Source: a virus (Duplodnaviria; Heunggongvirae; Uroviricota; Caudoviricetes). Taken from it: a DNA stretch of 40,622 bases. Below the pieces are notes generated by a model. It saw only the letters and a list, made by a program, of their open reading frames with translations. It did not search any database and had not been told where the DNA came from. The first letter of the stretch is position 1. The number at the start of each line of letters is the position of its first letter. Position numbers and translations under genes: made by a program. Below, piece by piece: positions 10,589 through 28,660 of this stretch. The stretch is from the IMG/VR virus record IMGVR_UViG_2534682002_000024. One strand, written 5' to 3'.

Positions 10589-11195
10589 TCTCTGGTCCTC
10601 CCGTTTTGCTGCCTTCACCGTTATCGTGATGCACATGACCTGAATAGGTGATCCCGGCAATAACCGCTTCGGACATCGTGAACGCCCCCTGTGATCTTCC
10701 GGTGCCGTCAATGGACACATTGCCTTTGACATGCAGGTTCTTATCCACTGTGATATTACCGGTAAAGTGAGCCTCCGGTGTATCCACCTGAACACCTTCA
10801 TCGGCGTAAATCTCCAGTGTCTTACAGGTCACAATGATCCGGCCGTTCTTTGTCAGACGTATACGGTGCCCCTCATGGTGATACACGCCGGTATCTCCGG
10901 CGGTAAGTCCGGTCGGGCGACTGCGGCGGTCTTCCACCACAAGCACCACGGCCTGATCCCGTTGTCCGCCAGCACAGGCCAGAAAAACTTCCGCACCAGG
11001 CAGGGGGACGCTGATTTGCCCGTACTGCTGGGGGCGTTCAACGTCATCAAAGGTTTCACCATCCATACCGGTGATTTGCACATTCTGGATTTTCAGCGTG
11101 TCCGTTGTGCCGGTCAGTACACCACGCCCGAACAGCAGACGAACACCCCGCATCACGGGGGCCAGAAGGCGGCTGATGACTTCGTCATTCATCAT
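10581..11195 (-). CDS. Baseplate assembly protein V / central spike (Mu gp45)
   Basis: 204 aa with N-terminal OB-like region and C-terminal beta-helix-like repeats (GNITVDKNLHVKGNVSIDG), typical of gpV. Confidence 0.7.
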   Translation of the reverse strand: MMNDEVISRLLAPVMRGVRLLFGRGVLTGTTDTLKIQNVQITGMDGETFDDVERPQQYGQISVPLPGAEVFLACAGGQRDQAVVLVVEDRRSRPTGLTAGDTGVYHHEGHRIRLTKNGRIIVTCKTLEIYADEGVQVDTPEAHFTGNITVDKNLHVKGNVSIDGTGRSQGAFTMSEAVIAGITYSGHVHHDNGEGSKTGGPENG

Positions 11196-12309
11196 TGAAT
11201 TTAATCCCCTGTTTTTTCATCTGTGCCCGCACGAAGGCGTCCACGTCACCCGCATTTCCGCTTCCGCTGTTTCCCGGCTCTGCCGGAACAATAAAGCCGT
11301 CACGGGGTGCCAGAATCAGACGGGTGGTTTCGCCGTGATTTGCATCCAGCGAAAACTCCACCTGACAGACAAGAAGATCACGCTCTTCCACTCCGGTGCG
11401 GGGAGCCGTGACAGCCGTCAGCAGGTTGATATCCCACAACTGGCCGTTCTCCCGAAACCAGTGCCGCACGGTGGCTGTCAGGCGCACAGAGCGGGCAACC
11501 GCCCGGCGCATTTCCCGGACAGCCCTCTGGCGTGCACCGTCTGCATCAACAGCATGATCCGCCAGCACAATTTTCGGTCTGTAACGGTGGATGGCACTGT
11601 CTGTCACCGTACCAACTGGTGCGGCCAGCGTTCCGGCTGTCAGTGCATCCCCGGCATGACCACCACCACGCCCGTGCCCCCGTACACGGTATTCACTGTG
11701 GCGCAGACGGTGATCCACGTTGTGATCCAAATCCAGCAGATTTTCGCCCAGCGTCAGCGTGTCGCCACGCTGACTGCCGGCCTGAGTGAAAACCAGTTCA
11801 CCGGCGGCATTACTGGTTACCAGGACGCCTCTGTGTCTCGCGGCCCGTGTCAGCGCATCTGCCACGGTTTCTGAATTTTCCAGTGTGAAGGTGGAAAAGG
11901 GCCGGGCTGCCGTTGCATCATTTACCTGCCAGCGCACCGTGACCCCGAACGGAGCACACAAATCTGAAGCAATGTGCTCCAGCGTGCGGTTCCTCCACTG
12001 GCTGCCCGGATGAATGGCTGAACAGTCCACCAGGTCACCGGTTTTATCCCGTCCGCTGAGCGTGATCTGAAAACGCGTGGCGCTGATGCGCTGCCGGACC
12101 TGATCCAGCCAGCCAGTGATCACAGGCTGACCGTCAATGCGCAATTCCAGAGACTGACCGGCACGGACGGATGACGGAAGGCGTACACCGGGCATCATTA
12201 CCCCCAGTTCAAAGGAGCCCGCCAGATGTTCAAGAGAGCGACGAACACTCACCGTCAGCCAGCCGGAAAAAATCTCACCGCCCAGATACAGTTCAACCCT
12301 GCTGCTCAC
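11185..12309 (-). CDS. Mu P-like tail/baseplate hub protein (gp44)
   Basis: 374-aa ORF between the N-like and V-like genes, as in Mu. Confidence 0.65.
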   Translation of the reverse strand: MSSRVELYLGGEIFSGWLTVSVRRSLEHLAGSFELGVMMPGVRLPSSVRAGQSLELRIDGQPVITGWLDQVRQRISATRFQITLSGRDKTGDLVDCSAIHPGSQWRNRTLEHIASDLCAPFGVTVRWQVNDATAARPFSTFTLENSETVADALTRAARHRGVLVTSNAAGELVFTQAGSQRGDTLTLGENLLDLDHNVDHRLRHSEYRVRGHGRGGGHAGDALTAGTLAAPVGTVTDSAIHRYRPKIVLADHAVDADGARQRAVREMRRAVARSVRLTATVRHWFRENGQLWDINLLTAVTAPRTGVEERDLLVCQVEFSLDANHGETTRLILAPRDGFIVPAEPGNSGSGNAGDVDAFVRAQMKKQGIKFNDE

Positions 12310-13663
12310 TAATCACCTCCACTGAATGGCCTCCGGGAATGAACAGCGGATCAACAATACCGTTACGGCGCACAAAACGTTGCCAGCCGGTACTGTTCCC
12401 GGTGGCACGGTACAGGGTCACCAGTGCAGGCTCGGTGGTACGTACAGTCACTACTGTTGCACCGGGTAGCTGAACTCCCCGTGTATTCAGATCCTCTGTC
12501 AGTGCCAGTCTGGCATCACGAAGCGTCAGCGCCGTGGCGGTATACCCCTGCCCGGACAGTGTCATCACCTGCCGTTCGAGCGCTTCGCTTAAGTCACGGT
12601 TAATGCGCTGAAGATCAACTGAACTTTCCAGCCAGACAGGCCAGGTACGGTGGGCTGCGTCACTGTCCGGCAGGGTTTCCTGACTGAGAACCTGATCCAG
12701 CAGTTTTCCCACGGTCTGTGCCTGGGCCACCACGGCAGCACTCTGCATTACCGCCCGTATCAGACGAATATTCTTTTGTGCTGCCGGTGTCAGACCGATG
12801 AGAGTCTGCGGATTATCCTGCTCATCCAGCACGTAACGCAGGGAAGATAATGTCCTGTACAGTTGCGGCATTCCCTGAGAGACGGCGGATGTCGTCCGGC
12901 CGATACTGCCACCGGGCCGGGTATTCAGGCCTCCTGAAGACAGTGACGGCAGCGATGGCAGGGTGATCAGGGCACTGAAAAGCCCCGCAAAAGATGAGGC
13001 CATGCGGGAAGGTGCTGTCAGTAATGCCGTGGCATTCCCTTTCAGCGCCGTGAACGTGGCAGTAAAGGCACTGATATCCTGTACAATCCCCATGCCGGAA
13101 ACGGCATTTTCCAGGGCGGACACCTTATCACTGATGGTTTCGGTCATTGCCTGGACATCGTGCATTCCGTCAGAGATCACCGTCCAGCCCGCTTCCAGGG
13201 TTTCAAAAACCTGCCCGAGCGCGGTGGTACTCTTCTGCTCCAGAATGGCGGCCGTGTCCTGTGTGACAGCAGGTGCGGTATCATCACTTACCGGCGTGAC
13301 ATTAATGGTGAACTCAACCACGCCCTGTTCAGCGGCGTTATAACGACTTTCAAAGCTGTTTATCAGCACATTTAACGTGCCGTAATCCGGGTGAAGCAGC
13401 TCCCCGGCACCGGGAGCACGAAGGGCATCACGCAGACGATTTCGCTGTGTCTGAACATCATCCCCCATCACAAGTACACTGAACGTAAATTCAGTCAGTT
13501 TAGGTCCCAGATCGTCTGCCCCACCGGTTTCCCGTAACGGATATTCCCGACGGACAATGTTTCGCCCACCACGTTCGCGCTGCTCACGCCAGACGAGGAA
13601 CGGCACACCACGGAACGCACCACGACCGTCACCAGAGGCCATAATTCCCTCCGTTCCAGACAT
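12293..13663 (-). CDS. Mu N-like DNA circularization / tail protein (gp43)
   Basis: 456-aa ORF directly after the tape measure gene. Confidence 0.65.
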   Translation of the reverse strand: MSGTEGIMASGDGRGAFRGVPFLVWREQRERGGRNIVRREYPLRETGGADDLGPKLTEFTFSVLVMGDDVQTQRNRLRDALRAPGAGELLHPDYGTLNVLINSFESRYNAAEQGVVEFTINVTPVSDDTAPAVTQDTAAILEQKSTTALGQVFETLEAGWTVISDGMHDVQAMTETISDKVSALENAVSGMGIVQDISAFTATFTALKGNATALLTAPSRMASSFAGLFSALITLPSLPSLSSGGLNTRPGGSIGRTTSAVSQGMPQLYRTLSSLRYVLDEQDNPQTLIGLTPAAQKNIRLIRAVMQSAAVVAQAQTVGKLLDQVLSQETLPDSDAAHRTWPVWLESSVDLQRINRDLSEALERQVMTLSGQGYTATALTLRDARLALTEDLNTRGVQLPGATVVTVRTTEPALVTLYRATGNSTGWQRFVRRNGIVDPLFIPGGHSVEVISEQQG

Positions 13664-15704
13664 TCACATCCAGTCCGTGACCGGACGTGTCATCAATATC
13701 AATACTGCGAGCCTGCCACCCTTCCGGGGCAACCAGCTCCACACGGGCAGAGGCTTTTTGTACCGCCTGTCCACTGCTTTCATCATCACTGCCCCGTAAT
13801 TTCTGCCAGGCTTCAGTCAGCCATCCCCCCAGATAGTTACCGAGATAGCTGCCCACCGTAGAACCAATGGCAATCCCCACAGGTCCGGCTGCCGCCCCCA
13901 GCGCACCACCGGCAATACTGCCTGCAAGAGAGCCGACCGCTTCTCCCTTGTCTGTGGCACTGGCGCTGCCATCCAGCAGAACCGGGGCTGCCATCGCGCC
14001 AGCCCACAGGGCACCTCCACCCAGCCGGCCGGCCAGTCCACCGGCACTGCGGAAAAAGCCGGAGAAACGCCCCAGCCCCATGCGGCTACCGACAGACGAA
14101 AGTAACCCACCGGCGCGCCCCATCATGCGCCCCCAGAACCCTGCCCCACCAGAAGAGGGAGACGGTGGCACTGGGGACGGTGGCAGGGGAGGCGTGACCG
14201 GTCTTCCGCGCCCCGGTCCGCGTTTCCTGCGGCCCCGCCCCTGACGTCCGCCTGAGGATGTATCGGTCGCGCCGGTGCCGGACAGTCCTCCTGTGGGCCA
14301 GTTTGTTACAAGTACTGGCTGAACGGCTGCCGGATTTACCCCGGTAAGAAAGTTTATAAAACGTTGCCCTCGTCCCTGAGATGTGCCTGGTGGTGTTCCG
14401 GCCGGAGGAGAGCGCCGGAAAGGTGAGGTAAGGAAGGCCGCCGCTGATAATCCGTATCCCAGCAATGCAGCACCCGGACGTATAATCCCCGTTCCGACAG
14501 CCCGCGCCATTTTCAGGGCACGGGTGGCGAGATACATGTACAGCAGGTATTTCGCGGCGGTCTGTGCCCCCTGACCAATGCGATCCAGCGCATCACCATA
14601 GCCCGCATCCCGCAGAGCCTGAAGCGTGTCGCGTACCTTTCTGATCGCCTGATAAAACCCTGTCACTGCATCACGGGCATACTCAAAGCCCTGGTTCATG
14701 GCTGATGCCGTACTTTCCGCCAGGGAATGGTAACTGCCATCAGATTTGGCACTGTCAACCCATGAAAGAAATCCCCTGAGATTACCCTTCAGTTTTTCAA
14801 ATGGCCCACTGTCCATCACATCCCGGGCAAACTGATCCCAGACGTCACCCATCATGGCCGTCAGGCCACTCCAGGAATTCATTGCGTCCTTTTGTGCTCC
14901 CCTGGCCTGTTCCGCCAGCGTCTGAAATAACAGGCGAATACTGTCCGGCCCAAGCAGCCCTTTTTCACCAAGTTTTCTGACCACTTTCTGGTCCACACCC
15001 AGACGATCAGCCAGCACGCGGTAGGCATTAATGCCGTAGGTGGCAAGAATATTTGCATCCGCTGCCTGAATACTGCCTCTTGCATACATCTGTTTCAGTT
15101 GCAGGGATGCCCCCTGTGCATCGGACAGTGACCAGCCGCCCACGGCACCCTGATCCTGAAGCATGGTGACAAAATTTCGGGCCTCCCTGTCACTCATACC
15201 AAAGCCCAGACTGGACGTATATTCCTGCATGACGCCAGCCAGCCCCCAGGTGGTTTCCTTCGCATTCTGTATTGCCCACCTGCGGACATCATCAGTTTTC
15301 GCCCGATCCCCTTTGTAAAGGGAGTTCAGGCGAATCATATAGGTTTCCATCTCCGCTGCCGGGCGAATAAATCCCCGGTTAAAGCCATATACAGCAGCAC
15401 CACCGGCCAGCATTCCGTAAAGATTGCTGATCCGCCCGATGGTGCCGGTAATACTGCCCTGAAGACGGTCAAAATCAGAAGTGACATGGCGGATACTGCC
15501 CCGCACCCCGGCCAGCGTGCGCTGCATCCTGCTTCCGAGTACATCTGTTTCCTGCCCGGCACGGCGGGCAGCATTTCCCAGGCCACCCAGCCCCGCCTGG
15601 CCGGAGCGTGAGAATGCCCCCAGCTCCTGTGACCACTGGCGGGATTTGGCTGAGATATTGCCGAGCAAATCAACTATCAGAGATGCTCTGAGATTTCGGG
15701 CCAT
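13629..15704 (-). CDS. Tail tape measure protein
   Basis: 691 aa, long helical N-terminal region, proline-rich then glycine-rich C-terminal tracts; lies after the chaperone pair. Confidence 0.8.
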   Translation of the reverse strand: MARNLRASLIVDLLGNISAKSRQWSQELGAFSRSGQAGLGGLGNAARRAGQETDVLGSRMQRTLAGVRGSIRHVTSDFDRLQGSITGTIGRISNLYGMLAGGAAVYGFNRGFIRPAAEMETYMIRLNSLYKGDRAKTDDVRRWAIQNAKETTWGLAGVMQEYTSSLGFGMSDREARNFVTMLQDQGAVGGWSLSDAQGASLQLKQMYARGSIQAADANILATYGINAYRVLADRLGVDQKVVRKLGEKGLLGPDSIRLLFQTLAEQARGAQKDAMNSWSGLTAMMGDVWDQFARDVMDSGPFEKLKGNLRGFLSWVDSAKSDGSYHSLAESTASAMNQGFEYARDAVTGFYQAIRKVRDTLQALRDAGYGDALDRIGQGAQTAAKYLLYMYLATRALKMARAVGTGIIRPGAALLGYGLSAAAFLTSPFRRSPPAGTPPGTSQGRGQRFINFLTGVNPAAVQPVLVTNWPTGGLSGTGATDTSSGGRQGRGRRKRGPGRGRPVTPPLPPSPVPPSPSSGGAGFWGRMMGRAGGLLSSVGSRMGLGRFSGFFRSAGGLAGRLGGGALWAGAMAAPVLLDGSASATDKGEAVGSLAGSIAGGALGAAAGPVGIAIGSTVGSYLGNYLGGWLTEAWQKLRGSDDESSGQAVQKASARVELVAPEGWQARSIDIDDTSGHGLDVNVWNGGNYGLW

Positions 15705-15706
15705 AC

Positions 15707-15889
15707 TTACTGCTTCGTTCTGATGATTTTTTCTGTCTGTCGGCAGTGCCGGTAAAGTTGCGACAGGGGGAGGTTAAGCGCCCATTCCGGACCGCTTTTT
15801 GTCACCATCCCCAGGATAATTGCCGCTTCTTCAATCTGATCCCGACACTGCGCCTGATCGCCCCCGGTCAGCTGCCAGCTTTCCGGCAA
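15707..15889 (-). CDS. Overlapping downstream ORF of the tail assembly chaperone pair (candidate frameshift extension)
   Basis: 60-codon ORF overlapping the 3' end of the chaperone gene in the +1 (equivalently -2) frame and ending at the tape measure start. A G5 run (minus strand, 15861-15865) lies in the overlap. Confidence 0.45.
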   Translation of the reverse strand: MPESWQLTGGDQAQCRDQIEEAAIILGMVTKSGPEWALNLPLSQLYRHCRQTEKIIRTKQ

Positions 15890-16325
15890 GCGCGGTATCC
15901 AGCAGGCTGACCGCTGCCATCAGGCGGGAGAGATCGCGCTCGCTTAACTGTCCAATCTGACGGGGTGACAACGGACCTTCAATGTCTCCCACTGCGGCAA
16001 TCTGACGGCGCAGCAGTGCAACACCGCGTAACGACGGAGACGCTATCAGCATCGGGCCATTGTTTGTCTCCACCACGCGCTCGGCTTCTGCTTCTGCGTC
16101 AATACTGTCTTTCGCTGTCAGTTCCCGGAACGTGACACGATATTCACGGGTCTCACCAAACGGCAGACCATCAAGCAGATCCACATATCCCTTTGCCAGT
16201 TGCTCTGTCAGCCCGGCAGTGCGTGGATCAGCCCCCTCAAGTGCTTCCCGGATTGCCTCCATCACGGCTGCCTCGGAAACTGCCGTTTTTTTCTTACGTG
16301 TGGTCATTTTATTTTTCCTGATCAC
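15831..16325 (-). CDS. Tail assembly chaperone (Mu gp41-like)
   Basis: 164-aa acidic protein between tail tube and tape measure. Confidence 0.6.
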   Translation of the reverse strand: MIRKNKMTTRKKKTAVSEAAVMEAIREALEGADPRTAGLTEQLAKGYVDLLDGLPFGETREYRVTFRELTAKDSIDAEAEAERVVETNNGPMLIASPSLRGVALLRRQIAAVGDIEGPLSPRQIGQLSERDLSRLMAAVSLLDTALAGKLAADRGRSGAVSGSD

Positions 16326-16687
16326 TGAACACGGGTACTGGTGGCGCTGGCGAACTTCACGGAGATCTCCCCGCCACCGTCAAGCGAGGCCGGTTCACTG
16401 CTCCAGGCCTTCGTCATCATGTGGACTTCGCCGGTATCCGCCACAAACTCGATAGTGACAGCAGTCCAGTTGTTGATTTCATCGGCGGCTGGTGAACCTT
16501 CTCCGCCTGCCGGAAATTTGCAGTCCAGTGTCGCTTCACGTGGTTTCTGGCGGTAACCATAGACTTTCGCGCCTTTCACCACTTCACGTTCAAAACCTGA
16601 CGGAGAAAATGTAGCCCCCTCAAGCGTCTCGTATTCCTGACCGTTCACACGGATAGTGGCCGTGCCCTGATACTGTTTTCCGCTCAT
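16322..16687 (-). CDS. Tail tube protein (Mu M-like)
   Basis: 121 aa, immediately after the sheath gene. Confidence 0.7.
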   Translation of the reverse strand: MSGKQYQGTATIRVNGQEYETLEGATFSPSGFEREVVKGAKVYGYRQKPREATLDCKFPAGGEGSPAADEINNWTAVTIEFVADTGEVHMMTKAWSSEPASLDGGGEISVKFASATSTRVQ

Positions 16688-16695
16688 GCCTTACC

Positions 16696-18195
16696 TCACA
16701 AAATGAAACGGATCTGTGCTGCCAGGAAGCGGAACTGGTTAACCAGATCCGGCGTGCATAACACGTCAAGACGGTTTCGATCTGACGCATTACGCTCCAC
16801 AAGCAGATTCTTTTTAAAGGTGTCCAGATTTTCGACCAGCCCGAGTTCCACCCACTCTTCACCCAGCGAAATTAACTGAAGCTTCATGATCTCCGGCGTC
16901 ACGATATTCTGACCGGCACGAACGGGCGTCCCGTCATCAGCCAGTTTATGGCGCGGAAAACGTTGTGTGATAAAAGTACGCAGGGAATAACGCAGCCAGG
17001 AGAGGGTGTAGATGGTTTCCACATCCAGATAGCTGGGATCACTTTCGCCGTACACGTTCTGGCGATACATGGTCACCTGACGTTCGATCTGAACCACATC
17101 ACCGGCAGCCACACTGACCGTGGCAATCCCTCCCCACAGCAGACTGTTACGCTCTTCACGCGTCAGACGATCGGCCGGGGCCGGGGCCATGCGTGACGGA
17201 AGCGCCAGCGTCTGAAGCGGACGCGCAGGATCTGCCCCCAGAGACGGCGCACAGGTGGCGCAGACCGCCGCTGCCCAGAGGTAATCCGGTTCAGGGGCTT
17301 TGGGAATGAATGTGCAGGTCGCCAGAAAATCATTGCGTTTTGCCCCGAATGCCTGCACCTCACCAAACGTGCCGGTATGCGCCATCCACAGCACACCGTC
17401 AGACATTTTGGCCGGTCCCCAGCGTTTCAGAAGCTCATCACTGATGATTTTCAGGTTTGCATCATCCTTATAGGGCATGACGACATAGTTGTACTGGCGA
17501 TCGCCCATACCCGCCACGCTTCGGGTGATATCCGGGTTAGTGGCTTTTGTTTTGGGATACCCAAGTTCAATGGTCAGTCCACCCGGTGTGGTTTCTCCGT
17601 CATGATAATTAACACGGATATCATGTACGGAACATTCACCGGTAAAACGGGCATTAATTCCCATACTTCCCTTGAGTCCGCTGGCGTTATCTGCTACCTG
17701 ACCTGCATAAGCACTGAAGGGCGCATCAGCATCGGCATTAATAACAGAGACCAGAGCGTCAATAAGCTCCTTACCTTTCTGCCCCTTCGTGACAGCCAGC
17801 AGATAACGCCGACCGCCGATATAAATGTGCAGAACACCATCCTGAGAGGCGGTGCCAATTATATTCATGAGACATGCCTGAGCCTGACCGGTGCCGCTCC
17901 CCTGAGCAATGGCATACAGTTCAGCATCAGGATTGATGGCGATAAATTCCGCCACCATCAGGGCAATCATGGAGCCGCGCCCCCAGAATTCTGTTGCCTG
18001 AGACGCACGGGTGATCCTGACCGGAACATCCAGAACACCGGCACCGTCCACGGCATTCTCTTTCATTCTCGCCTGACCAAACAGCAGCACACACTGACGC
18101 TGTGCCGGAGTGCCGGTGACAGCCATGGAGTTATTAAACTCAACCTCAATCAGCGGTATACGGCGGTCATTACCGATCCCGTCAAAATTAATCAT
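16696..18195 (-). CDS. Contractile tail sheath protein (Mu L-like)
   Basis: 499 aa; size and position typical of myovirus sheath. Confidence 0.8.
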   Translation of the reverse strand: MINFDGIGNDRRIPLIEVEFNNSMAVTGTPAQRQCVLLFGQARMKENAVDGAGVLDVPVRITRASQATEFWGRGSMIALMVAEFIAINPDAELYAIAQGSGTGQAQACLMNIIGTASQDGVLHIYIGGRRYLLAVTKGQKGKELIDALVSVINADADAPFSAYAGQVADNASGLKGSMGINARFTGECSVHDIRVNYHDGETTPGGLTIELGYPKTKATNPDITRSVAGMGDRQYNYVVMPYKDDANLKIISDELLKRWGPAKMSDGVLWMAHTGTFGEVQAFGAKRNDFLATCTFIPKAPEPDYLWAAAVCATCAPSLGADPARPLQTLALPSRMAPAPADRLTREERNSLLWGGIATVSVAAGDVVQIERQVTMYRQNVYGESDPSYLDVETIYTLSWLRYSLRTFITQRFPRHKLADDGTPVRAGQNIVTPEIMKLQLISLGEEWVELGLVENLDTFKKNLLVERNASDRNRLDVLCTPDLVNQFRFLAAQIRFIL

Positions 18196-18437
18196 TGCGG
18201 TTTCTCCTTATCGGATGCCGGTTGGGCGACCGGTTTTTCTGTCGCAGTCGTTGCATCCGCAGATACAGCCGGAGCCTCTTCAGCGGCTTTTTCAGCCTGA
18301 ATGACATCGCCGTCATCAAGACGCCGACACCAGAACGGCGTAAAGGGCTTTTCCTCCCCCTCCTGTGCCAGCGGGCGCATTGTGTCGGGATCACGAATCA
18401 GGCGTCCCGGCGCGGGTTTGATAAAGATGGTTTTCAT
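18192..18437 (-). CDS. Mu gp38-like small structural/assembly protein
   Basis: 81 aa with A/E/P-rich tail, upstream of sheath. Confidence 0.5.
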   Translation of the reverse strand: MKTIFIKPAPGRLIRDPDTMRPLAQEGEEKPFTPFWCRRLDDGDVIQAEKAAEEAPAVSADATTATEKPVAQPASDKEKPQ

Positions 18438-18998
18438 TTACAGTTCCTCCGGCGGTTCGACCGCCGTTGTCGTGTTCCCCGGCAAATCAATATGTGCCTC
18501 AAACGGCGGCGTACCGGGCGGCTCCACAAAGGTTTCGTAATGACGCAGGAAGTCGTCCAGCGAGCTGATATCGGTCAGCGGTGCGATCATTTCCTCGCAG
18601 GAGAAATAAAGCGCATACATCACCGCACCACTGTCCGCCTGGGTTTCGGTGTAACCGTTGACCGCCTTTTCAAAGTAAAGCGGTGAGGTTTTTTCTGTTC
18701 TGAAGCCGTTAAGCACGGCAATCAGCCGGGCCACAATCTGATACAATCCGGGACGGCTGGCCTCACGCCCGTTGAGCATGTCGCCGATGACGTAGAACAC
18801 CCAGTGACTGACCAGGCGACCACGGGTACGGCCTTCACCGGCACCCAGCCAGGCAACGTAGATCGCCGGGGCGTTAATCAGCATGGTGCGCAGTACGCTG
18901 TCGTTCCAGTCGCCGGGATGCGTGTCAACAGACACCAGTTCATTCCCGAAATACTCACGGATACGGGCGATGTATGCCTGTTCGGTTTCCGTAATCAT
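18438..18998 (-). CDS. Mu gp37-like head-tail joining protein
   Basis: 186 aa, in the conserved block between capsid and sheath. Confidence 0.5.
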   Translation of the reverse strand: MITETEQAYIARIREYFGNELVSVDTHPGDWNDSVLRTMLINAPAIYVAWLGAGEGRTRGRLVSHWVFYVIGDMLNGREASRPGLYQIVARLIAVLNGFRTEKTSPLYFEKAVNGYTETQADSGAVMYALYFSCEEMIAPLTDISSLDDFLRHYETFVEPPGTPPFEAHIDLPGNTTTAVEPPEEL

Positions 18999-19414
18999 AT
19001 GAAGCCCTTCTGGTTGCGCCCGAATACCGCTGCATCAGACTGAACCTGTGGTAAATCCCCGGATTCAGGGGCCGCTCCGTTCGTATCCACACCTACCGGC
19101 ACATTGCCGTTCATGACATCTTTCAGCCAGGCCAGCGCCTCACGGTAACGGTCACGCGCCTGATCTGAGGCTCGCTGATCGCACAGGTAATAAAAGGCAA
19201 TCGCGCAACAGTGCTGAACAAGAACGGCCGGAATAACCTCCAGCGGCAGCGTGTAACGGGCGGACAGATAGCTGTCGATAAGGGCTGACGCATCTGTCAG
19301 CGCCCGGTTCAGCTTGCGCGTATCCGGCTCATCCGAACGGGGCACAGCCAGTAACGGCCTGAGCAAATCCTCGCGGTAACGCGCCCGCATATCGGTTTCA
19401 GTGGCGTAATTCAT
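18995..19414 (-). CDS. Mu gp36-like head-tail connector protein
   Basis: 139 aa, in the conserved block between capsid and sheath. Confidence 0.5.
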   Translation of the reverse strand: MNYATETDMRARYREDLLRPLLAVPRSDEPDTRKLNRALTDASALIDSYLSARYTLPLEVIPAVLVQHCCAIAFYYLCDQRASDQARDRYREALAWLKDVMNGNVPVGVDTNGAAPESGDLPQVQSDAAVFGRNQKGFI

Positions 19415-19809
19415 GCACGGGCCTGTTTCGCTTTGTTACCGGTCTTTTTCCAGGGAGCATCCTGTCCGGCTTCGGCTTCGGCTTCGGCTTCGGCTTCGGC
19501 TTCGGCTTCGGCTTCGGCTTCGGCTTCGGCTAAATCTGTACCGGCCACTGCATGAACCACACCCGCCACGCTCCCCGCATCATCAGCAGACGTCTGTAGT
19601 ATTCGCACAGTGAGGCATGGCTCCGCCTCCAGTCGGGCAAGCTGCTCCGGGGTGACCTCAACCTGCTGACGTCCACGCGTGAACAGAAACCCCGCACGAC
19701 GAAACGCCGAACGACTGCAACGCACTTCTGCCAGCACCGTGACAGAATTGTCACCACTGACCTGAAGACCTGAATCATCTGTTGCTGCCACAGTGTGATG
19801 TTCATTCAT
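19411..19809 (-). CDS. Mu J/gp35-like head-tail protein carrying an (EA)10 dipeptide repeat
   Basis: 132-aa ORF following the major capsid gene; contains AEAEAEAEAEAEAEAEAEAEA encoded by a hexanucleotide tandem repeat. Confidence 0.6.
   Translation of the reverse strand: MNEHHTVAATDDSGLQVSGDNSVTVLAEVRCSRSAFRRAGFLFTRGRQQVEVTPEQLARLEAEPCLTVRILQTSADDAGSVAGVVHAVAGTDLAEAEAEAEAEAEAEAEAEAEAGQDAPWKKTGNKAKQARA
19468..19530. repeat. (GGCTTC)10 perfect tandem hexanucleotide repeat inside a coding region
   Basis: Ten uninterrupted GGCTTC units plus a partial unit, read directly from the sequence; in-frame, encoding (Glu-Ala)n on the minus strand. Confidence 0.95.
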
Positions 19810-19852
19810 ATTTGCCCTCCGCAGGGGCCGGGCCGCAAGCCCGGCTCACCGT

Positions 19853-20800
19853 TTACAGATAATCCGCGACAACCAGCTCCAGCTTGCCCTTCATCTCGTT
19901 AGAGACGGTTGCGTTTCCGTCTGCGAACAGTTCACGCTCCAGCAGCTGCACCGCCTGTTTTTCCAGCGAGGTGGGGACAACAATATGGGTGGGTTTAATG
20001 CCGAGTTTGCGGCCACCGTCAGCGGTAAATTCGCGCATGGCTGACCAGCCGTGCCACAGTGCATCCAGCGTCAGCGGTGACTGCATCATGTAGGCCATCT
20101 GCCAGAAGCCGTAGCCCACATTGCGACGGGCGGATGCACCAAACACAAATTCGTTATCGGTGAATGCGCGACCTTCATCGACTTTGGTCTGGGCAACCAG
20201 TTCAGCCTTACGGCGATCCTGATAAATCAGCGGTTTTACCGCGCGGGAGCAGTCAAGCAGATACCAGGCCGGACCGCTGTAATCAGCCTGTGCGCCGACA
20301 GAGCCGGTTTTTGCCACAAACATATTGCTGACCATCTGCGCATCCCCGGAGCCATCCACTTTGGGGTAAACCGGATGTTCGGTATCAAAGAAGTTCTGAC
20401 CGTCATAGCAGGCCGCACTGATCCCGTCACGCAGGGCAGCAAAGACCAGCTCATCCGGTTGTACCGCCGCAGCGCGCCCCATCTCCTGGAACAACGGGGA
20501 ATAAATACCGAGGTTGTCGTCTTCGAAGTCATCGCGGCTAATGGCGACAGTGCCTTCAAAAGTTTTGTTCACGATGGCATAGCCATAGGCTTTCATCTTC
20601 TCGATGACGCGGGAGCCGATCCACTCACGGAACTGCGGGAACTGCCCCAGCCAGCCGTAGGTGTTGGATTTCGATGTGGAGGGCACGGTCATCGCAATTT
20701 TTTTGTACTGCGACGGGGCCATGGACATCCCGGCCTGAAAATCAGAACGGTAGCCCGTCATCAGGGCGGTGATCATCGCCGGTGTAATCGGGGTAGGCAT
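19853..20800 (-). CDS. Major head (capsid) protein, Mu T-like
   Basis: 315 aa, follows the protease/scaffold gene. Confidence 0.8.
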   Translation of the reverse strand: MPTPITPAMITALMTGYRSDFQAGMSMAPSQYKKIAMTVPSTSKSNTYGWLGQFPQFREWIGSRVIEKMKAYGYAIVNKTFEGTVAISRDDFEDDNLGIYSPLFQEMGRAAAVQPDELVFAALRDGISAACYDGQNFFDTEHPVYPKVDGSGDAQMVSNMFVAKTGSVGAQADYSGPAWYLLDCSRAVKPLIYQDRRKAELVAQTKVDEGRAFTDNEFVFGASARRNVGYGFWQMAYMMQSPLTLDALWHGWSAMREFTADGGRKLGIKPTHIVVPTSLEKQAVQLLERELFADGNATVSNEMKGKLELVVADYL

Positions 20801-21924
20801 TATTGCATTTCCTCTTTCATTTTCAGGAACTCGGCTTCGGTTTTACCCAGCAGTTTGGCGGCCGCGATATCTTCAGCCGACAGCACAGCGGTGGCAGTCT
20901 TTTTATCCGGCACGGTCACGGTGTCGGTCTGAAGGCCGGTCAGGGCCGCAACCGGCTGGCGGGCGTCAAGCTGTGCAGAAAGTGCCGCCACGCCAATCTG
21001 CCCGCCCAGTTGTTCCAGATAGCCGCGTTCACTTTTGAAGATGCGTCCTTCGGACTCGGCCTTGTCCAGCAACTGCTCCAGCGTGGTGCTGCCGTGCTGC
21101 GCCGACAGCGCAACGTATTCGGTACGCAGGGCGTTATACGTTTCAACGGGCACGTATTTCGTCAGGTCAATACTGCCGCCAGCCGGTGTGCCTTTTGCAG
21201 TTTCCAGCTCTGCCGACAGACTGGCGACCTGTGTTTTCAGGTTGTCGTGTGCATCCGCACGGGTTTTGATCCCGGTGAGGGCAGACAGCGCTGCCGTGCC
21301 CAGCTCCGGCGTAAATTCGTCACCGTCAGCCACGGTCAGACCGAGCGCCGTCAGCAACTGGCGTAATTGCTCATTCATGGAGGTATCCTTTAAAGGAGGG
21401 TTTAAGGCGTTATAAAGGTCATCCGCCGACAGTGCGGCGACAGGATTCATGCCGGTCAGACCGGGGTCACCGGTAATAGCCAGCATCCGAAGTTCGACAG
21501 GTTCGCCGGTGCTCTCGTCATAGCCAATCACCGGTGAAAACCAGGGGAATTCGTTATTACGCAGATGTTCAAGGGCCGGAGGGTTCCACTTCGGGCGCAC
21601 CTCGAAACCTCGCTCTTCACTGAAGCGAAAATTCTCCGGTGAGGCCATCACAAAACCGGCAGCCGGTGCCGGATGTCCCTCAATCAGGGTCTGGTGGTTG
21701 TAGTCAATTTTCACCGGCTGATTGAGCGCCACAACACGGGAGACCATGCGCTCAACGGCTGCATGGTTGATCAGCCAGCCCTCGGCCGGTTTTTCCGGGC
21801 GACCGTCACGGGCCTTTACCCGACCGGCTGGCATGATCTGACACCAGTCACCGTCCCCGTCTGCGGACAGGCTGATGGCATTCAGAATGGCATAAGCAAG
21901 TTTGGGCGTGTTTTTCGTCTTCAT
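20800..21924 (-). CDS. Head protease/scaffold protein, Mu I-like
   Basis: 374 aa with coiled-coil, Ala-rich C-terminal half typical of scaffolds; immediately upstream of the capsid gene. Confidence 0.75.
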   Translation of the reverse strand: MKTKNTPKLAYAILNAISLSADGDGDWCQIMPAGRVKARDGRPEKPAEGWLINHAAVERMVSRVVALNQPVKIDYNHQTLIEGHPAPAAGFVMASPENFRFSEERGFEVRPKWNPPALEHLRNNEFPWFSPVIGYDESTGEPVELRMLAITGDPGLTGMNPVAALSADDLYNALNPPLKDTSMNEQLRQLLTALGLTVADGDEFTPELGTAALSALTGIKTRADAHDNLKTQVASLSAELETAKGTPAGGSIDLTKYVPVETYNALRTEYVALSAQHGSTTLEQLLDKAESEGRIFKSERGYLEQLGGQIGVAALSAQLDARQPVAALTGLQTDTVTVPDKKTATAVLSAEDIAAAKLLGKTEAEFLKMKEEMQ

Positions 21925-22100
21925 TCCGGCAGCATAGGCCGGGAATTTTCAGGGCGGGTTTTGCGGGATTTCAGGAAGTGCTTTCAGGGGAAAAATACAA
22001 AGGCGCTTCACGCAGATTTTAAAGCCCGTTAAATTCAGGTTAGAAAATCACGACACGCGCCTGAAGGGGGTAAGGTAATGCATTTGCATACCTTAAACAA

Positions 22101-22574
22101 TTAAGGCGTTTCTGTGGCCTTTTTAAAGCGTTTTCTGATTTCGTCCATGATCTCCTGCTCTGCCACCTGATCAAAGCCCATATACGGACGTGCACCAATG
22201 GCCGCCGGTCCAGGCGGCATACCTGGCAGGCCCCCCCACTGATGAATGGCCGCATAAGGCTCATTTGATCCAATCAGCGCCCAGGTATCGCCATAATCCG
22301 TGGTCAGGCGTCGGGCCAGATCGCCGTTCAGCGTCAGGATTTTGCCGGGCATGTATCCCTTACGGGTACGCCACTTGCGGTAAGGATCTGACCAGTCATG
22401 CCAGCGTTCGCCGTCCGGCTCTTTTTCCTGTTCAAACGCCATTTCTGACGATGACAGAAGGCTGGACGCCACACTGCGGGTCAGGTCTTTTCCACCACCC
22501 ACAAACTGAAGCCGGGCAAAGACCCGCTGGAGACGCGTAACGTCAACAACGACAGCGGCATCAATGGATGACAT
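22101..22574 (-). CDS. Virion morphogenesis protein, Mu G-like
   Basis: 157 aa between the F-like and I-like genes. Confidence 0.65.
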   Translation of the reverse strand: MSSIDAAVVVDVTRLQRVFARLQFVGGGKDLTRSVASSLLSSSEMAFEQEKEPDGERWHDWSDPYRKWRTRKGYMPGKILTLNGDLARRLTTDYGDTWALIGSNEPYAAIHQWGGLPGMPPGPAAIGARPYMGFDQVAEQEIMDEIRKRFKKATETP

Positions 22575-22695
22575 ATTGCCTCCGCATAAAGGATGAATAT
22601 AAAATAAACAGGCGGTCAGTGTACGCTTAACTGGTAAAGTCGGTGCCTGCCTCCGGGTGGATCATGTATGCGGGTTCGACCCCCGCCACTGACCG

Positions 22696-24027
22696 TTAAT
22701 CAATATCTCCTTCCAGTACCTCAAGCATTCCGCCCCGGATATCCGATTTCAGCTTATCCATATTGATAACCCGGTAAGCATTAACAATCACATCCAGTTT
22801 ATCCGGCTGACGCTTCAGGCTGTACGGTGCATTAACGGCAATCTGCACACTGCCATCCTGATTTTCCACGATATACATCAGATTGTTGTGCCGTTTGTCC
22901 CACAGTACCGCTTTTGGCCTTGCCAGCATTGCCGGTAAGCGCCCGAAATCCTCCGGCGTCAGGGCGATACCGTCATTCTGATGTTTCATGCTGTCCGCAT
23001 GGAGCACATTTTTACCGCTCATCGCCAGCAGGCGGGCCGGTGGCGTTCCCGTCCGGCTTTCCACCGCCTGCGCAATGCTTTCGGTCATAAAGCCCAGCGT
23101 GCGGATATCGTTACCGCCTCGCCGGGTTTTCATGATGTTTTTTGCCCAGATGCGGAACGCCAGTTGCCGCTCCGGGCTGTTGTTCATCTCCTGAACCACC
23201 ATTTCCCGCAGCGCCGGGCTTTTCACCTCGATCAGTTTACGGATCAGCGCCTGGTCTGTGCCGAACGCCGCCGAACCGGGGTTATATGACCAGCCCACAT
23301 CCGGTGTCATGGTTCTGGTGCCATCTGAATATGTGGTCACCGGCATTTCTCTGACTTCCCCGGTCTGCTTATCCACGCCAGCCTCAACATTGCGGGTGGA
23401 GAGATGATCCTGACCGGATGAAACGGATAACCCCATCGCATCCAGACGGGCCTGAGACAATGGCCGGACACGGCAGCGACAGTTCCAGCCATTGGGCGGG
23501 TAGTGTGTATTCCAGAACGGATCGTCATAGCGGAATACCAGACCGTTAAGGGCGGAATGCGCCGGGCGGGTGCGGCTGTCCATCACCGCCACATACTGCC
23601 AGAACGGATGCGTGTCCGTGTTGTTCATCATCTGCGTGTAACGCCCGGCATTGTAAGCCACACGGGTGTTCACGTTGTAAATCAGCGCCAGACGGCGGGG
23701 ACTGCCCAGCTGCACTTCTTCCGCGTTACCGGCACTGTCCACCACAATCTGTTTTCCCCACCATCCCAGCTTTTGCAGGCGGGGTGTCAGTGTGCGGATA
23801 AATGCTTTCTGTGAAATCCCCTCATCAACAGCACGCTGCACTTCCGCCTGTAGTGTGGTCAGTACGTCCAGGCGTGCCACTTTTGCCGCCGTGAATGAAC
23901 GGGCATGAACATCTGCGTTTGTTTCGAACCAGTTCCAGCTGATATGCGCCCCTTTGGCGCGGAAGTATGCCACCGCCTCTTTTGAGGGAAGCGTGGCGGC
24001 ATAACCTAAATCAATCCCCTGTGCCAT
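22696..24027 (-). CDS. Head morphogenesis protein, Mu F-like (minor head protein)
   Basis: 443 aa following the portal gene. Confidence 0.75.
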   Translation of the reverse strand: MAQGIDLGYAATLPSKEAVAYFRAKGAHISWNWFETNADVHARSFTAAKVARLDVLTTLQAEVQRAVDEGISQKAFIRTLTPRLQKLGWWGKQIVVDSAGNAEEVQLGSPRRLALIYNVNTRVAYNAGRYTQMMNNTDTHPFWQYVAVMDSRTRPAHSALNGLVFRYDDPFWNTHYPPNGWNCRCRVRPLSQARLDAMGLSVSSGQDHLSTRNVEAGVDKQTGEVREMPVTTYSDGTRTMTPDVGWSYNPGSAAFGTDQALIRKLIEVKSPALREMVVQEMNNSPERQLAFRIWAKNIMKTRRGGNDIRTLGFMTESIAQAVESRTGTPPARLLAMSGKNVLHADSMKHQNDGIALTPEDFGRLPAMLARPKAVLWDKRHNNLMYIVENQDGSVQIAVNAPYSLKRQPDKLDVIVNAYRVINMDKLKSDIRGGMLEVLEGDID

Positions 24028-25609
24028 CCAGCATCCCCTTCATTTCCGCAGCAAACATGGCATCACTGAGCAGCGTCATCAGGCGGGAATCATCCATTTC
24101 ACGGTAAAGGGCAGGCAGGTCTGCCAGTGCCTCCGCCAGCCCCCGCGTTCTGATGGCTTCAATGACCGGCTCCAGTACCGGGTCGATGGCCTCCTGTAAC
24201 CGGCGGGCAGGCACCGCATCCCCCATGTCGTCCAGTTCATCTCGGGGGCTGCTCTTCGCTTCCGGCAGTCTGGCAGCCAGCGCTGTCTGCTCTGTCTTCT
24301 CCTGTTTTTCCGGTGGCATCTCTTTGTCTGTCTGAGCAGGTTCATTGCCACTCTGACGGACACGGAAGATGGCTTCACCGGGGGCAGGCTGTGGAATACC
24401 GGTCTGCTCCCGTACCCAGGGATCAGGAATATCCATCCCCGTACTGAGCTGCATCACCGCACTGGTGATTTTGGTGATATCCCCCGGCTCTTTTGTCTGG
24501 AAACAGATACGCGGCAGGCGACGGATATCAATGGCGTGGGCGGTGTTCAGGGCATACAGCGGATACACCAGATCGCGGTTCAGCGTGGCGGCCAGCTGGC
24601 GTAAATCAGAATCCCTGATTTCCCGGCGCACCTCGTTATGCACTTCACCCAGCGAGCGCGCGCCTTTGTCTCCGGCTTCCGTGGTCAGCGTGCCGCCGAG
24701 TATTGCTTTGGAGATGGAACGCTCCCCCCACGAAATCATGGTTTCAAACGGATCGGCCTGACCGTTCGCGGCTGCCTGAAACTCCAGCGACATCCCGGCC
24801 GGGATGATCCCGCCTGTACGTCGCCCGATATCCATCACCGCCCGCATCAGGGCGCTTTTCTGCTCCGGTGTTGCCCCGGACGGGTATTTACCGACCTTCA
24901 TCGGCAGGCCGTACACCTCCAGAAATTCAGCCAGATCGCGCACGGAATAGTTTTTGAAAATGAACGGCCAGATAAGCGTTCTGACAAGCCCTGTTGCGCC
25001 GCCGTAACCGGTGCGTGAACGTGACTGATGCACTATCCAGCCAAAGGGCTGAAACGCCACCCCGGCATGGCTGCCGTCACGCAGCCGCAGTTCGCTCAAA
25101 TCATCCGGGTTAAGGCAGAAATGCCCGCTGTCACGCCAGCGGATGGCGCGGATGATGTGCATTTTACCGAGCATCCCGTGCTCAATCTCCATGCAGGAAT
25201 AGCCTTTCAGGATGGCATCGGTGGCATCAAACAGCATGGCATCAAACCAGTCGGCGGAATGCAGGTATTCGTCGAGCATTTCCGCGTCCTTTTTCTCATT
25301 CGCGCTGGCGTTCGGGGGCGGCTCAATACTCCAGGGCACCCCCTGAATGGCAAGACGTCGCTTGCCCAGCTCTGCAAAAAGATGGGTATCCTTTTCTTCA
25401 ATGTCAGCGGCCAGATCGGACTGGGCAATCAGATCGCCACGTTCAGCCCCGCGAAGGCACTGTGCCGCCCGGTTCGGGGTGATACCCGAGGCCGGATGTT
25501 CAATATAACGGCTGGCAATCTGCGGAATATCCAGCGCGGCACTCTGCATCTCCGGGTCAAAGGAGAAAGGTTTTCCGTCAAGATCAATTATACGTCCCAC
25601 TACCAGCAC
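24011..25609 (-). CDS. Portal protein (Mu gp29 / DUF935-like)
   Basis: 532 aa directly after the large terminase, with an acidic C-terminal tail. Confidence 0.8.
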   Translation of the reverse strand: MLVVGRIIDLDGKPFSFDPEMQSAALDIPQIASRYIEHPASGITPNRAAQCLRGAERGDLIAQSDLAADIEEKDTHLFAELGKRRLAIQGVPWSIEPPPNASANEKKDAEMLDEYLHSADWFDAMLFDATDAILKGYSCMEIEHGMLGKMHIIRAIRWRDSGHFCLNPDDLSELRLRDGSHAGVAFQPFGWIVHQSRSRTGYGGATGLVRTLIWPFIFKNYSVRDLAEFLEVYGLPMKVGKYPSGATPEQKSALMRAVMDIGRRTGGIIPAGMSLEFQAAANGQADPFETMISWGERSISKAILGGTLTTEAGDKGARSLGEVHNEVRREIRDSDLRQLAATLNRDLVYPLYALNTAHAIDIRRLPRICFQTKEPGDITKITSAVMQLSTGMDIPDPWVREQTGIPQPAPGEAIFRVRQSGNEPAQTDKEMPPEKQEKTEQTALAARLPEAKSSPRDELDDMGDAVPARRLQEAIDPVLEPVIEAIRTRGLAEALADLPALYREMDDSRLMTLLSDAMFAAEMKGMLDGTGD

Positions 25610-27264
25610 CCCCGATCAAATTCATGATATGCCTCATCGTCATCACGATAACCGCCCTCCATGGCCCGCGACCGCTCCGGCAGCGCCTGACAGGCTGATT
25701 CATCCAGGATGAAGCCCTCCATGTATGACGCCCGGTTTGCCATACAGAGCGCCACGGCAAAATCGCCATGGCGGCGGGCGTTCACAGCCGTTGCGTTCTG
25801 GTCCTTCGTACGCCCCTTGTCAATTTGCGGGATACCGTTCACCACCTTCACATGGCGCAAATCATCAAGCGTGGTCTGATGGCGGGCGACGAGGATATTC
25901 TGATCCTCAAACTCGGCCTTCAGTTTTGGCATCCACTCGCAGTACCACTTCGGCGATAACATCACGCAGTCGATGATGTCCGGGCCAAAGGCCAGCAGCG
26001 CGGCTTCGGCCAGATAGCCGCCGTTACCGGTGGCGTCGAACGCCGCACCGACCAGCGCCGGAACGCGGGTCAGGATGTACATCATCACCTGCTCCTGCTG
26101 GGCATACGGCAGGTTGCGCAGCTCCACGCGAAACACCTCGCGTTTTGCCAGGGATTCAGTGATTTCCAGCAGCACAAAACAGGACAGGTCTCCGGTGCGG
26201 GCAAAGTCTTCCCCGAAGCTGAAGCGGGAACGGGAATTTAACGCCTCTAAAAGCGGTTTTAAATGTTCTTCACACCAGGTTAAAACCTCCGATTCACGCA
26301 GCCATGCGGCACGGCTGATGAAGTCGTCCGGGGCTTCAAACGTCAGAATCGGGATGTCGCGGATCATCGCCATTTCAATAAGCGCGTGAGGAATATAGGC
26401 ACCGCCGGATTTTTTCGGGATACAGCCGTATTCCTCGTCGGCATCCTCACGGGTCGGGGCGTTTTTGTAGAGATCATCACGCCACTTCTGCTCGCTTTCC
26501 GGTGACCATTCGCGGCCGGTGACATAACAGATACGACGGTACAGCCCGTCCGCAATGGCATCATCCAGGGTAATGCGGTGGACGCTGTAATCCTTGCGCC
26601 CTTCGCGGGCTTCCTGAATGTACTGATTAAACAGATTATCGACGCCGTTATGCGTGGAGATAATACGCACGCGCGCGCCCCACATGGTAAGCGCCATTGC
26701 CGCCTTGAGAAGCTCATCCAGTGACTCGTGGAACGCGGCTTCATCAATCACCACATCCCCCTGAAGGCCGCGCAGGTTTGACGGACGGGAAGACAGTGCC
26801 TGAATTTTGAATCCACTGTTCGGAAAGCGGATCATGTAGGTCAGAATTTCTTCTTTTTTATCCCGATCCCAGAAGGTCTGCTCATACACATCAGCATCTG
26901 CCAGCTGGTTAAAGGCACGGGAGAACAGTGCGCAGGCAGAAATATATTCCAGCGCCATCTCCTGCTTTGACCCCACATAAAACACATTGCGGCCACCACG
27001 CCGCTTAGGCTTTGCGGCGGTAATGACGTTACGCCCGGCTTCCGCCCAGGTAAGCCCGGTGCGGCGGGATTTTTCCGCGATGCAGACCTCGCTTTCATCC
27101 TCAAACCAGCGGGCCTGATAATCCAGAAATACCGGCATATCACCGGGCAAATCAAGGCTGTCCGGCACATCCACGCCCAGCAGGGCTTTTTCACCGGCCA
27201 GATCAATTTTGCGGGTGGAGACGGTATTCGTCAGTAAGGGGGAGAGTTCTTCGGCGTTATTCAT
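25600..27264 (-). CDS. Terminase large subunit (Mu gp28-like)
   Basis: 554 aa; ATPase-like N-terminal region and nuclease-like C-terminal region with conserved acidic residues. Confidence 0.8.
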   Translation of the reverse strand: MNNAEELSPLLTNTVSTRKIDLAGEKALLGVDVPDSLDLPGDMPVFLDYQARWFEDESEVCIAEKSRRTGLTWAEAGRNVITAAKPKRRGGRNVFYVGSKQEMALEYISACALFSRAFNQLADADVYEQTFWDRDKKEEILTYMIRFPNSGFKIQALSSRPSNLRGLQGDVVIDEAAFHESLDELLKAAMALTMWGARVRIISTHNGVDNLFNQYIQEAREGRKDYSVHRITLDDAIADGLYRRICYVTGREWSPESEQKWRDDLYKNAPTREDADEEYGCIPKKSGGAYIPHALIEMAMIRDIPILTFEAPDDFISRAAWLRESEVLTWCEEHLKPLLEALNSRSRFSFGEDFARTGDLSCFVLLEITESLAKREVFRVELRNLPYAQQEQVMMYILTRVPALVGAAFDATGNGGYLAEAALLAFGPDIIDCVMLSPKWYCEWMPKLKAEFEDQNILVARHQTTLDDLRHVKVVNGIPQIDKGRTKDQNATAVNARRHGDFAVALCMANRASYMEGFILDESACQALPERSRAMEGGYRDDDEAYHEFDRGCW

Positions 27265-27845
27265 CAGGCTTTACCCAACAGAATCCCCTTAATACGGGAC
27301 TCAAGCTGTTCACTCATCCCGTCCACGCCGCGCAGCTCGTCGGTGACGGCGTTTGCCATCTCTTCAGCAAATGCGGCCCGGATTTCTTTTTCACGCTTAA
27401 TGCTGCGCTCGGCGGCACTTTCCGCACGCTGTGCTGACAGGAGGATGTCCTTAATAAGACGCATATCCACGTCGCTGTCACTGTTCAGGGATTCGGTCGC
27501 GGCACGCAGACGGCGGTACATCAGGGCGCGGGACATCTCCAGGATCAATGCAGTGGTTTCACCGGTTGGCTTGTCCCCCAGTTCGGCCATCATGGCTTTT
27601 GTCTGCTCGCGTAAATCACGCAGGTTACGGGCAATCAGCTCATTACGGGAGGCTTCCCGGCTGATGGCCGCCGGTGAAAGCTGCTGCTCTTCCGGCAGGC
27701 CCGCCTCACGGATCAGACGGTTGATTTCCTCGCGTATCTGGACCTGCGTCAGACGTTTTTCACGCAGCATTTCCAGCAGTGGCTTACGGATGCTGTCGGG
27801 GAGCAAATCCACCTTGCGCACGCGTCCACGCGTCGGCTTGTCCAT
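27264..27845 (-). CDS. Putative terminase small subunit (Mu gp27-like)
   Basis: 193-aa helical, charged protein immediately upstream of the large terminase. Confidence 0.6.
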   Translation of the reverse strand: MDKPTRGRVRKVDLLPDSIRKPLLEMLREKRLTQVQIREEINRLIREAGLPEEQQLSPAAISREASRNELIARNLRDLREQTKAMMAELGDKPTGETTALILEMSRALMYRRLRAATESLNSDSDVDMRLIKDILLSAQRAESAAERSIKREKEIRAAFAEEMANAVTDELRGVDGMSEQLESRIKGILLGKA

Positions 27846-27847
27846 CG

Positions 27848-28138
27848 TTACCCCCTTGCGCGTGGTTTCTTCACACCCGGAACGCTGGCGCGGCCTTCCG
27901 CCACATCCTGCCCCCGGCCGGTCAGTTCCGCGATGAAATAACCGTTAATCAGAACGCGTTTGCGCACCAGTCCCTGCTCGGCAAGCCAGGCAATGTGGGT
28001 GTGAACGGTGTCGCGGGACACGCGGTGGCCGTAATCATCCAGACAGTCCTGGAGCACGGATTCACCCAGTTCACCGTTGTAATCTGCCAGCGACCGCAGA
28101 ATGACCAGACGCTGATCTTCAGTAATGAAATTACTCAT
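27848..28138 (-). CDS. Mu gp26-like protein
   Basis: 96-aa ORF, conserved position. Confidence 0.45.
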   Translation of the reverse strand: MSNFITEDQRLVILRSLADYNGELGESVLQDCLDDYGHRVSRDTVHTHIAWLAEQGLVRKRVLINGYFIAELTGRGQDVAEGRASVPGVKKPRARG

Positions 28139-28442
28139 TCGTTTTTTTCCTTACCGCCTGCTCCAGCAGCAGTTCGTTCTGATAGGAGACAGAGCGGAGC
28201 GTGGCGTTCGTGGTTTTCAGTTCACCCCGCAGGGTCACGATTTCCACATTCAGACGGTTGACCTCAGCTTCTGTCGGCAGTGACGACAGGCGGGTTTCCA
28301 CCTTCTCAACGCGGTCGGAGAGTTTTTCAAAGGCCTCGCGGGGGACAAACGTTTTGCGCATCAGCGCCATGAATATCCCGCCAGCGGTTGCCGTCGCCGA
28401 AAGGATCGGCACAACATAATCTTTAACGATGCTGACCCACAT
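28131..28442 (-). CDS. Mu gp25-like membrane protein (possible releasin-type lysis factor)
   Basis: 103 aa with one N-terminal TM segment (VVPILSATATAGGIFMALM) and a coiled-coil tail; located in the lysis region. Confidence 0.5.
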   Translation of the reverse strand: MWVSIVKDYVVPILSATATAGGIFMALMRKTFVPREAFEKLSDRVEKVETRLSSLPTEAEVNRLNVEIVTLRGELKTTNATLRSVSYQNELLLEQAVRKKTNE

Positions 28443-28650: not shown

Positions 28651-28660
28651 ACCTTTTTCC

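Follow-up and report, generated by a model that had tools for sequence, protein, structure and literature searches.

Does the perfect hexanucleotide array inside a conserved phage gene change its copy number between isolates and, if so, what does the change mean for the protein? The question is raised by the IMG/VR virus record IMGVR_UViG_2534682002_000024, a stretch of 40,622 nucleotides (nt; all of it is called the window here), which holds a Mu-like prophage resembling Sp18 of Escherichia coli O157 Sakai. Its gp35-type gene carries a tandem array of GAAGCC units, which are translated into alternating Glu and Ala residues, (EA)n. We found that the array is a genuine but ordinary bacterial variable-number tandem repeat (VNTR), which is mainly a strain marker and involves no new mechanism. 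We consider it likely that the variation is driven by slippage, in frame, within a disordered and length-tolerant protein tail, and that the length changes are largely neutral.

The array and its copy number

On the plus strand the array reads (CGGCTT)10+CGGCT in the raw sequence, the coding strand being (GAAGCC)n. Tandem Repeats Finder reported it with a period of 6, 10.8 copies, 100% matches and a score of 130, while the runner-up array of the whole 40.6-kb window scored 54. A pattern of three units gave nine matches in the window versus 0.00 in 100 dinucleotide-preserving shuffles. Positions 19468-19530 form 21 codons, A(EA)10, residues 94-114 of the gp35-type protein; the surrounding protein sequence is ...HAVAGTDL-AEAEAEAEAEAEAEAEAEAEA-GQDAPWKKTGNKAKQARA*, with A(EA)10 standing at the position of AEAEAEAEAEAEAEAEAEAEA. 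The window array thus consists of a short unit repeated perfectly head to tail, and the location and unit (GGCTTC, on the coding strand GAAGCC) given in the earlier note, which was made from the window sequence, were exact according to Tandem Repeats Finder, the raw sequence and the reading frame.

The 461-nt region around the gene was detected in 228 of the 5426 complete E. coli genomes (~4%), at 267 places in 229 records, with a median of one and a maximum of 4 locus copies per genome. Units were counted directly in the window and in 17 loci from database records, written as (CGGCTT)n+CGGCT. These 18 sequences had n = 1, 2, 3, 5-14, 16 and 20. A single unit was present in strain 2012C-4502, two units in 99_0849 and in NCCP15648 (a divergent prophage with one variant unit, CGGTTT), eight in Sp18 of O157 Sakai (ECs_4975), nine in an O91:H21 strain, and ten in the window and two other loci. 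Within these 18 sequences, all arrays of at least 3 units were pure. Three IMG/VR contigs of the same lineage also had pure arrays, with n = 7, n = 3 and, in a contig that breaks off inside the array, 14 or more; among three contigs of a divergent lineage, one had n = 1 and two had short arrays with one or two CGGTTT (ET) units.

Allele spans were obtained for 51 full-length matches, a systematic sample of the 229 records from complete E. coli genomes. Every span fitted 461+6(n-10)+9t, with t for a further indel, of 9 nt, that lies in the tail. The sample comprised 16 alleles with a Simpson diversity of 0.93, and n = 1 was found in 5 of the 51 genomes, the protein cluster with n = 1 having 150 members. 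The array is therefore coding and keeps the frame, as had been proposed: the frame is intact in each of the 51 sampled spans and in every allele counted directly.

Copy number varies independently of point divergence in the flanks. Three groups of loci with identical 280-nt flanks carried n = {2, 10, 16}, n = {7, 10, 10} and n = {3, 5, 6, 8, 13, 14, 20}. Over ~38.3 kb, the 99_0849 prophage differed from the window by 11 mismatches and by its array (2 versus 10 units), which was the sole indel, and the 88_1577 prophage, with 84 mismatches to the window, had 16 units. At the finest scale, two cattle isolates, 121 and 113, have their prophages inserted at one and the same chromosomal position; these prophages showed 0 mismatches over 40.5 kb and were one 6-nt unit apart (13 versus 14). 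Close relatives with conserved flanks thus differ by whole units. The free variation of copy number between isolates that the earlier note had suggested is borne out by this comparison of related prophages, with n = 1-20 and identical flanks within three haplotype groups, and the opposite outcome, one fixed copy number with interruptions in all relatives, is clearly not what we observed.

Origin of the length variation

The near-continuous ladder of one-unit steps, together with alleles that are independent of their flanks, is the classical signature of stepwise slippage. According to the explanation that we favour, (GAAGCC)n would gain and lose whole 6-nt units via slipped-strand mispairing during DNA replication and, with a unit of two codons, each allele would stay in frame and alter only the length of A(EA)n. 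Mutated units were also amplified in their turn, as in (EA)k(GA)2-4, (ET)1-2 runs and EV/ES/ET variants recovered from the protein database and IMG/VR. An instability driven by hairpins was rejected, as both strands of the array fold worse than shuffled controls (z = +2.8 and +2.3 for the two strands) and show no stable secondary structure; simple strand misalignment would thus be enough, and a hairpin model is unneeded.

Instead of replication slippage, the main source of the length alleles could be exchange between several Mu-like prophages of the same cell, by gene conversion or unequal homologous recombination. Mu-like elements transpose replicatively, which counts in favour of such exchange, as do the 267 places in 229 records and the genomes with up to 4 copies. 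However, the median genome has one copy, the ladder proceeds almost continuously by single units, as slippage would have it, and the single-copy pair at the same chromosomal site, identical over 40.5 kb, is nevertheless one unit apart. We therefore regard recombination as a very unlikely replacement for slippage.

Many proteins from draft genomes are labelled 'partial' and end at or in (EA)n (P0056, with 82 member sequences, P0062, P0063, P0065 and P0068), and one IMG/VR contig (locus L021, end 1839-1864) stops within the array. Short-read assemblies evidently break at the array; prophage copies that differ in n, or heterogeneity within the culture, are possible reasons. Such truncations could be taken to mean that errors of sequencing or assembly at a low-complexity site only simulate the variation. 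Against this, the ladder is present in finished circular genomes from many laboratories, the changes are always of whole units with perfect flanks, and the arrays (11-125 nt) lie well inside single reads, which makes an artefact extremely unlikely.

The protein around the (EA)n stretch

We modelled the window protein with AlphaFold2 on an alignment of 33 sequences. Taken in ten-residue blocks, the predicted local distance difference test score (pLDDT) exceeded 90 from residue 21 to residue 70, in a folded N-domain with a strand-strand-helix-strand order (E24-37, E40-51, H53-60, E65-72); FRRAG and DPxLxV are its conserved motifs in the family alignment. Residues 78-131, comprising the array and the tail, had pLDDT < 50 and no predicted secondary structure. 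Across variants, the repeat is followed by a Lys/Arg-rich tail of 18-21 residues, the Sp18 type being ...TDL-A(EA)n-GQDAP(R/W)KKTGNKAKQA(KKA)RA and then the stop; the window haplotype has Trp (DAPWKK) where most alleles carry Arg (DAPRKK). The alternative endings KQAKKARA and KQARA derive from a 9-nt near-duplicate, GCCTTTTTC/GCCTGTTTC, which is independent of the hexamer array.

In the homologues of Mu, Salmonella, Erwinia, Citrobacter and Mixta, a variable linker joins the N-domain to a helical C-domain of ~45 residues, which has the consensus ...IRxAxAxLxxxxPExFTxxGxPxVxAVxxALG.... In alignments, this three-helix C-domain is missing from the window protein, which ends 18 residues past the repeat and does not show the two-domain architecture. 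No microsatellite was found in the homologues that bear the C-domain (Mu, Salmonella, Erwinia, Citrobacter). At the homologous point Mu gp35 reads ...TLAEAGG-LDVLGVGDLNTRIR... and then runs into its C-domain. In the Sp18-like lineage, a short Lys/Arg tail stands where HI1506 and Mu gp35 have their three-helix C-domain. The array most likely grew from a single LAEAG motif, which alleles with n = 1 still share with Mu gp35; to judge from the aligned sequences, this motif is the likely seed of the array. Two distant members of the FluMu_N family, P0093 and P0098, have long Ala/Lys/Glu low-complexity tails (KAEA/KAKA-rich) in place of the C-domain, a parallel to the E. coli type with its (EA)n and basic tail.

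On the structural model, (EA)n may be described as an acidic spacer inside a disordered C-terminal tail with a basic patch at its end. The 'flexible Glu-Ala linker' of the earlier note thus stands as regards predicted disorder and variable length; as a linker it does not, for no second folded domain follows, only the basic tail. As a working model, a floppy tether could connect a small docking domain with a module that binds nucleic acid or a surface; this module would be the three-helix domain in most relatives and the Lys/Arg tail here, and the length of the tether would drift freely.

The protein probably tolerates the length changes since the region is predicted to be unstructured, and the variation would then be largely neutral, probably without a regulatory role. 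The net charge of the protein ranges from -1 (n = 1) to -20 (n = 20), next to a tail with a net charge of +4, and selection might instead act on the length of (EA)n, as a rheostat at the level of the protein. Its acidic residues would set the reach of the basic gp35 tail or mask it electrostatically and so modulate a step such as the packaging of DNA, the completion of the head or its joining to the tail; through hypermutability, a phage population could try out different settings. Besides the charge range, this reading can draw on the charged, Ala-rich tails of P0093 and P0098, which suggest that tails replacing the C-domain are functional modules, and on the alleles, which are spread broadly rather than collapsed to a minimum. 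But the units are pure at the DNA level, without synonymous variation among them, which indicates recent mutational expansion and not maintenance at the protein level; all lengths from 1 to 14 occur without a preferred optimum; and n = 1 is common, both in the sampled genomes and as a protein cluster, so the stretch is dispensable. Adaptive tuning of this kind is in our view unlikely. The related proposal of a frame-preserving contingency element, by which a temperate phage would hypermutate the acidic spacer beside the basic gp35 tail, in both length and charge, appears quite improbable; if it were true, a phage population would continuously vary its packaging, head completion or neck sealing, and different lengths would be favoured by host or condition.

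Several points weigh against neutral slippage. Some variants in the protein database have interrupted arrays (EV, ES, EK units), so that a pure slippage ladder is not seen in all lineages. Slippage is a mechanism read from the pattern of alleles. With up to 4 locus copies per genome, unequal recombination or gene conversion could contribute, and a change of ~19 units in net charge across alleles could matter given the basic tail. Finally, tolerance because of disorder would follow from an AlphaFold prediction of low confidence. We nonetheless retain slippage in a length-tolerant tail as the probable explanation. The natural series of alleles from n = 1 to n = 20, in a conserved gene of the Mu head-neck module, suggests that the C-terminal region can vary widely in length and charge and still be tolerated, and provides material for testing the role of gp35.

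Gene family, operon and prophage

By its N-domain and gene position, we assign the window gene as a homologue of Mu gp35 and HI1506. The gp35-type open reading frame (ORF) matched Pfam PF17891 FluMu_N with 37.4 bits (gathering cutoff 25.8; residues 36-72) and PHROG 3622, labelled as of unknown function, with E = 1.6e-78, and its relatives are named 'HI1506-related protein' in RefSeq. Residues 25-92 matched PDB 2OUT (E = 2.7e-5), the nuclear magnetic resonance (NMR) structure of H. influenzae HI1506 / FluMu gp35 and the sole solved relative, and a tblastn match to phage Mu gp35 had 51% identity over residues 23-63. The ratio of nonsynonymous to synonymous substitution (dN/dS) was ~0.35-0.6 for codons 1-93 against diverged alleles, which points to a genuine gene under mild constraint. 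The match of P0089 (1815 aa) in the representative search was spurious, as it is a Big_5 repeat protein. We also rejected a plus-strand ORF at 19413-19613 (RLRLRL...), which runs antisense to a conserved gene within a conserved operon and is backed by no independent evidence. A weak 15-nt repeat in the same gene (2 copies, 86% matches, score 46, 19686-19715; Tandem Repeats Finder) is probably due to chance.

Annotation of the family is inconsistent. The Sakai record (ECs_4975, L010) has 'DNA processing protein', PGAP 'HI1506-related protein' and PHROGs 'unknown function'; Mu gp35 (Mu_35, L018) is a 'head-to-tail connector complex protein' in GenBank and a 'hypothetical protein' in RefSeq, and gene 35 of D108 is also hypothetical. 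The earlier note had called the product 'gp35/J-like' and its gene a 'head-tail gene'. The gp35 part agrees with PF17891 and the Mu gp35 match, but J is gp36, the next gene downstream; 'head-tail' is only a tentative database label, and a 2025 cryo-electron microscopy (cryo-EM) study of Mu did not resolve gp35 in the virion, calling it only 'probably structural' (PMC11915804). Nothing supports gp35 as a decoration or cement protein, since the Mu capsid has no cement proteins (PMC11915804).

The order gpT / gp35-type gene / gp36 is identical in Mu, and the stop codon of the gp35-type gene overlaps the start codon of gp36 (ATGA). The coordinates of the array, the gene, its protein regions and its neighbours are given in Table 1.

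Table 1. Position of the array, the gp35-type gene and associated features in the window.
Feature	Position	Strand	Basis
Hexanucleotide array, perfect	19467..19531	minus (coding)	Tandem Repeats Finder and raw sequence
gp35-type gene, HI1506-related protein, 132 aa	19411..19809	minus	ORF list, Pfam, PHROG, RefSeq naming
Folded N-domain, FluMu_N module, ~residues 23-72	19594..19743	minus	AlphaFold2, Pfam
Predicted disordered C-terminal region, residues 78-132, with (EA)n and basic tail	19414..19578	minus	AlphaFold2
Basic tail GQDAPWKKTGNKAKQARA, 18 residues	19414-19467	minus	Translation, protein variants
Second length polymorphism, 9 nt, tail KQARA versus KQAKKARA (window: short form)	19420..19432	minus	Protein variants, left flanks, span fit
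gpI protease	20800-21924	minus	ORF list, Pfam, PHROG
gpT, Mu-like major head subunit, upstream neighbour	19853..20800	minus	Pfam PF10124 E = 6.6e-119; PHROG 371
gp36 (Mu J) head-tail adaptor, downstream neighbour	18995..19414	minus	Pfam PF07030 E = 3.5e-35; PHROG 195
gp37	18438-18998	minus	ORF list, Pfam, PHROG
DUF2635	18192-18437	minus	ORF list, Pfam, PHROG
Tail sheath	16696-18195	minus	ORF list, Pfam, PHROG
Sp18-like Mu-like prophage, approximate extent	1547..39841	minus	Alignment limits against 88_1577 and 99_0849 prophages; their annotation from mom/com to transposase

The related prophages are complete and lie at differing chromosomal sites with different array alleles, which indicates that the element was recently mobile. 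Near-identical prophages (loci L003, L004, L006 and L001/L002) were located beside ydhK/sodC, within lsrC, by a fimbrial operon and within Stx1a and Stx2c phages, and one prophage copy was on a 167-kb record that is apparently a plasmid (H56). Host flanks occupy positions 1-1546 and 39842-40622 of the window, and its left prophage junction was absent from all 5426 complete genomes. The flank pattern had no exact match in the species-representative genome collection; the locus therefore appears confined to accessory prophages that are absent from the representative genomes. RefSeq records a 'tRNA-OTHER' between the virion-morphogenesis and head-morphogenesis genes (L003, 23272-23351, with equivalents in L004/L005), a place that corresponds to ~22600-22700 of the window; ARAGORN detected no tRNA in the window, and no Rfam family was found there.

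Comparison with known systems

The window protein shares with HI1506 / FluMu gp35 (2OUT) and Mu gp35 a homologous FluMu_N domain, the same gene position between T and gp36, and a flexible region after the N-domain, which in HI1506 is reportedly an unstructured linker of 30 residues. Unlike them, it has no three-helix C-domain of ~45 residues and ends in (EA)n and the basic tail. YqbF of the B. subtilis skin prophage (PDB 2HJQ) gave a structural score at noise level and no sequence similarity, and is a lead only.

Phase-variable contingency loci provide heritable and reversible variation at high frequency. In those of Haemophilus and Neisseria, the repeat unit is not a multiple of three, or promoter spacing is altered, and expression switches ON or OFF. 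The gp35-type array resembles such loci in being a slippage-prone simple repeat within a gene, but its unit has 6 nt, each observed allele is in frame and only the protein length changes. We thus rejected a phase-variation locus, given that no frame change was seen in the 51 sampled spans or in the directly counted alleles.

The E. coli O157 loci VNTR-3, -9, -17, -19 and -37, used in multiple-locus VNTR analysis (MLVA), consist of 6-bp units in ORFs of hypothetical proteins; their 6-22 alleles carry 2-23 repeats and give diversity indices of 0.74-0.90 (PMC3321953 Table 1). Judged by the ORFs named for it, and not by the panel sequences themselves, the standard O157 MLVA panel does not include ECs_4975, and our literature search retrieved no paper that names the locus or mentions ECs4975. 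Like the MLVA loci, the gp35-type array has a 6-bp unit within an ORF, with 1-20 repeats, 16 alleles in 51 genomes and a diversity of 0.93. In contrast to them, it is carried by a mobile prophage at varying sites in 228 of the 5426 genomes, and many null alleles would therefore be expected if it were used for typing. The locus is as polymorphic as the best O157 MLVA markers and changes fast enough to differ between clonal isolates, as in the pair that is identical over 40.5 kb but for one unit; it could thus serve to sub-type Shiga toxin-producing E. coli (STEC) that carry Sp18-like prophages.
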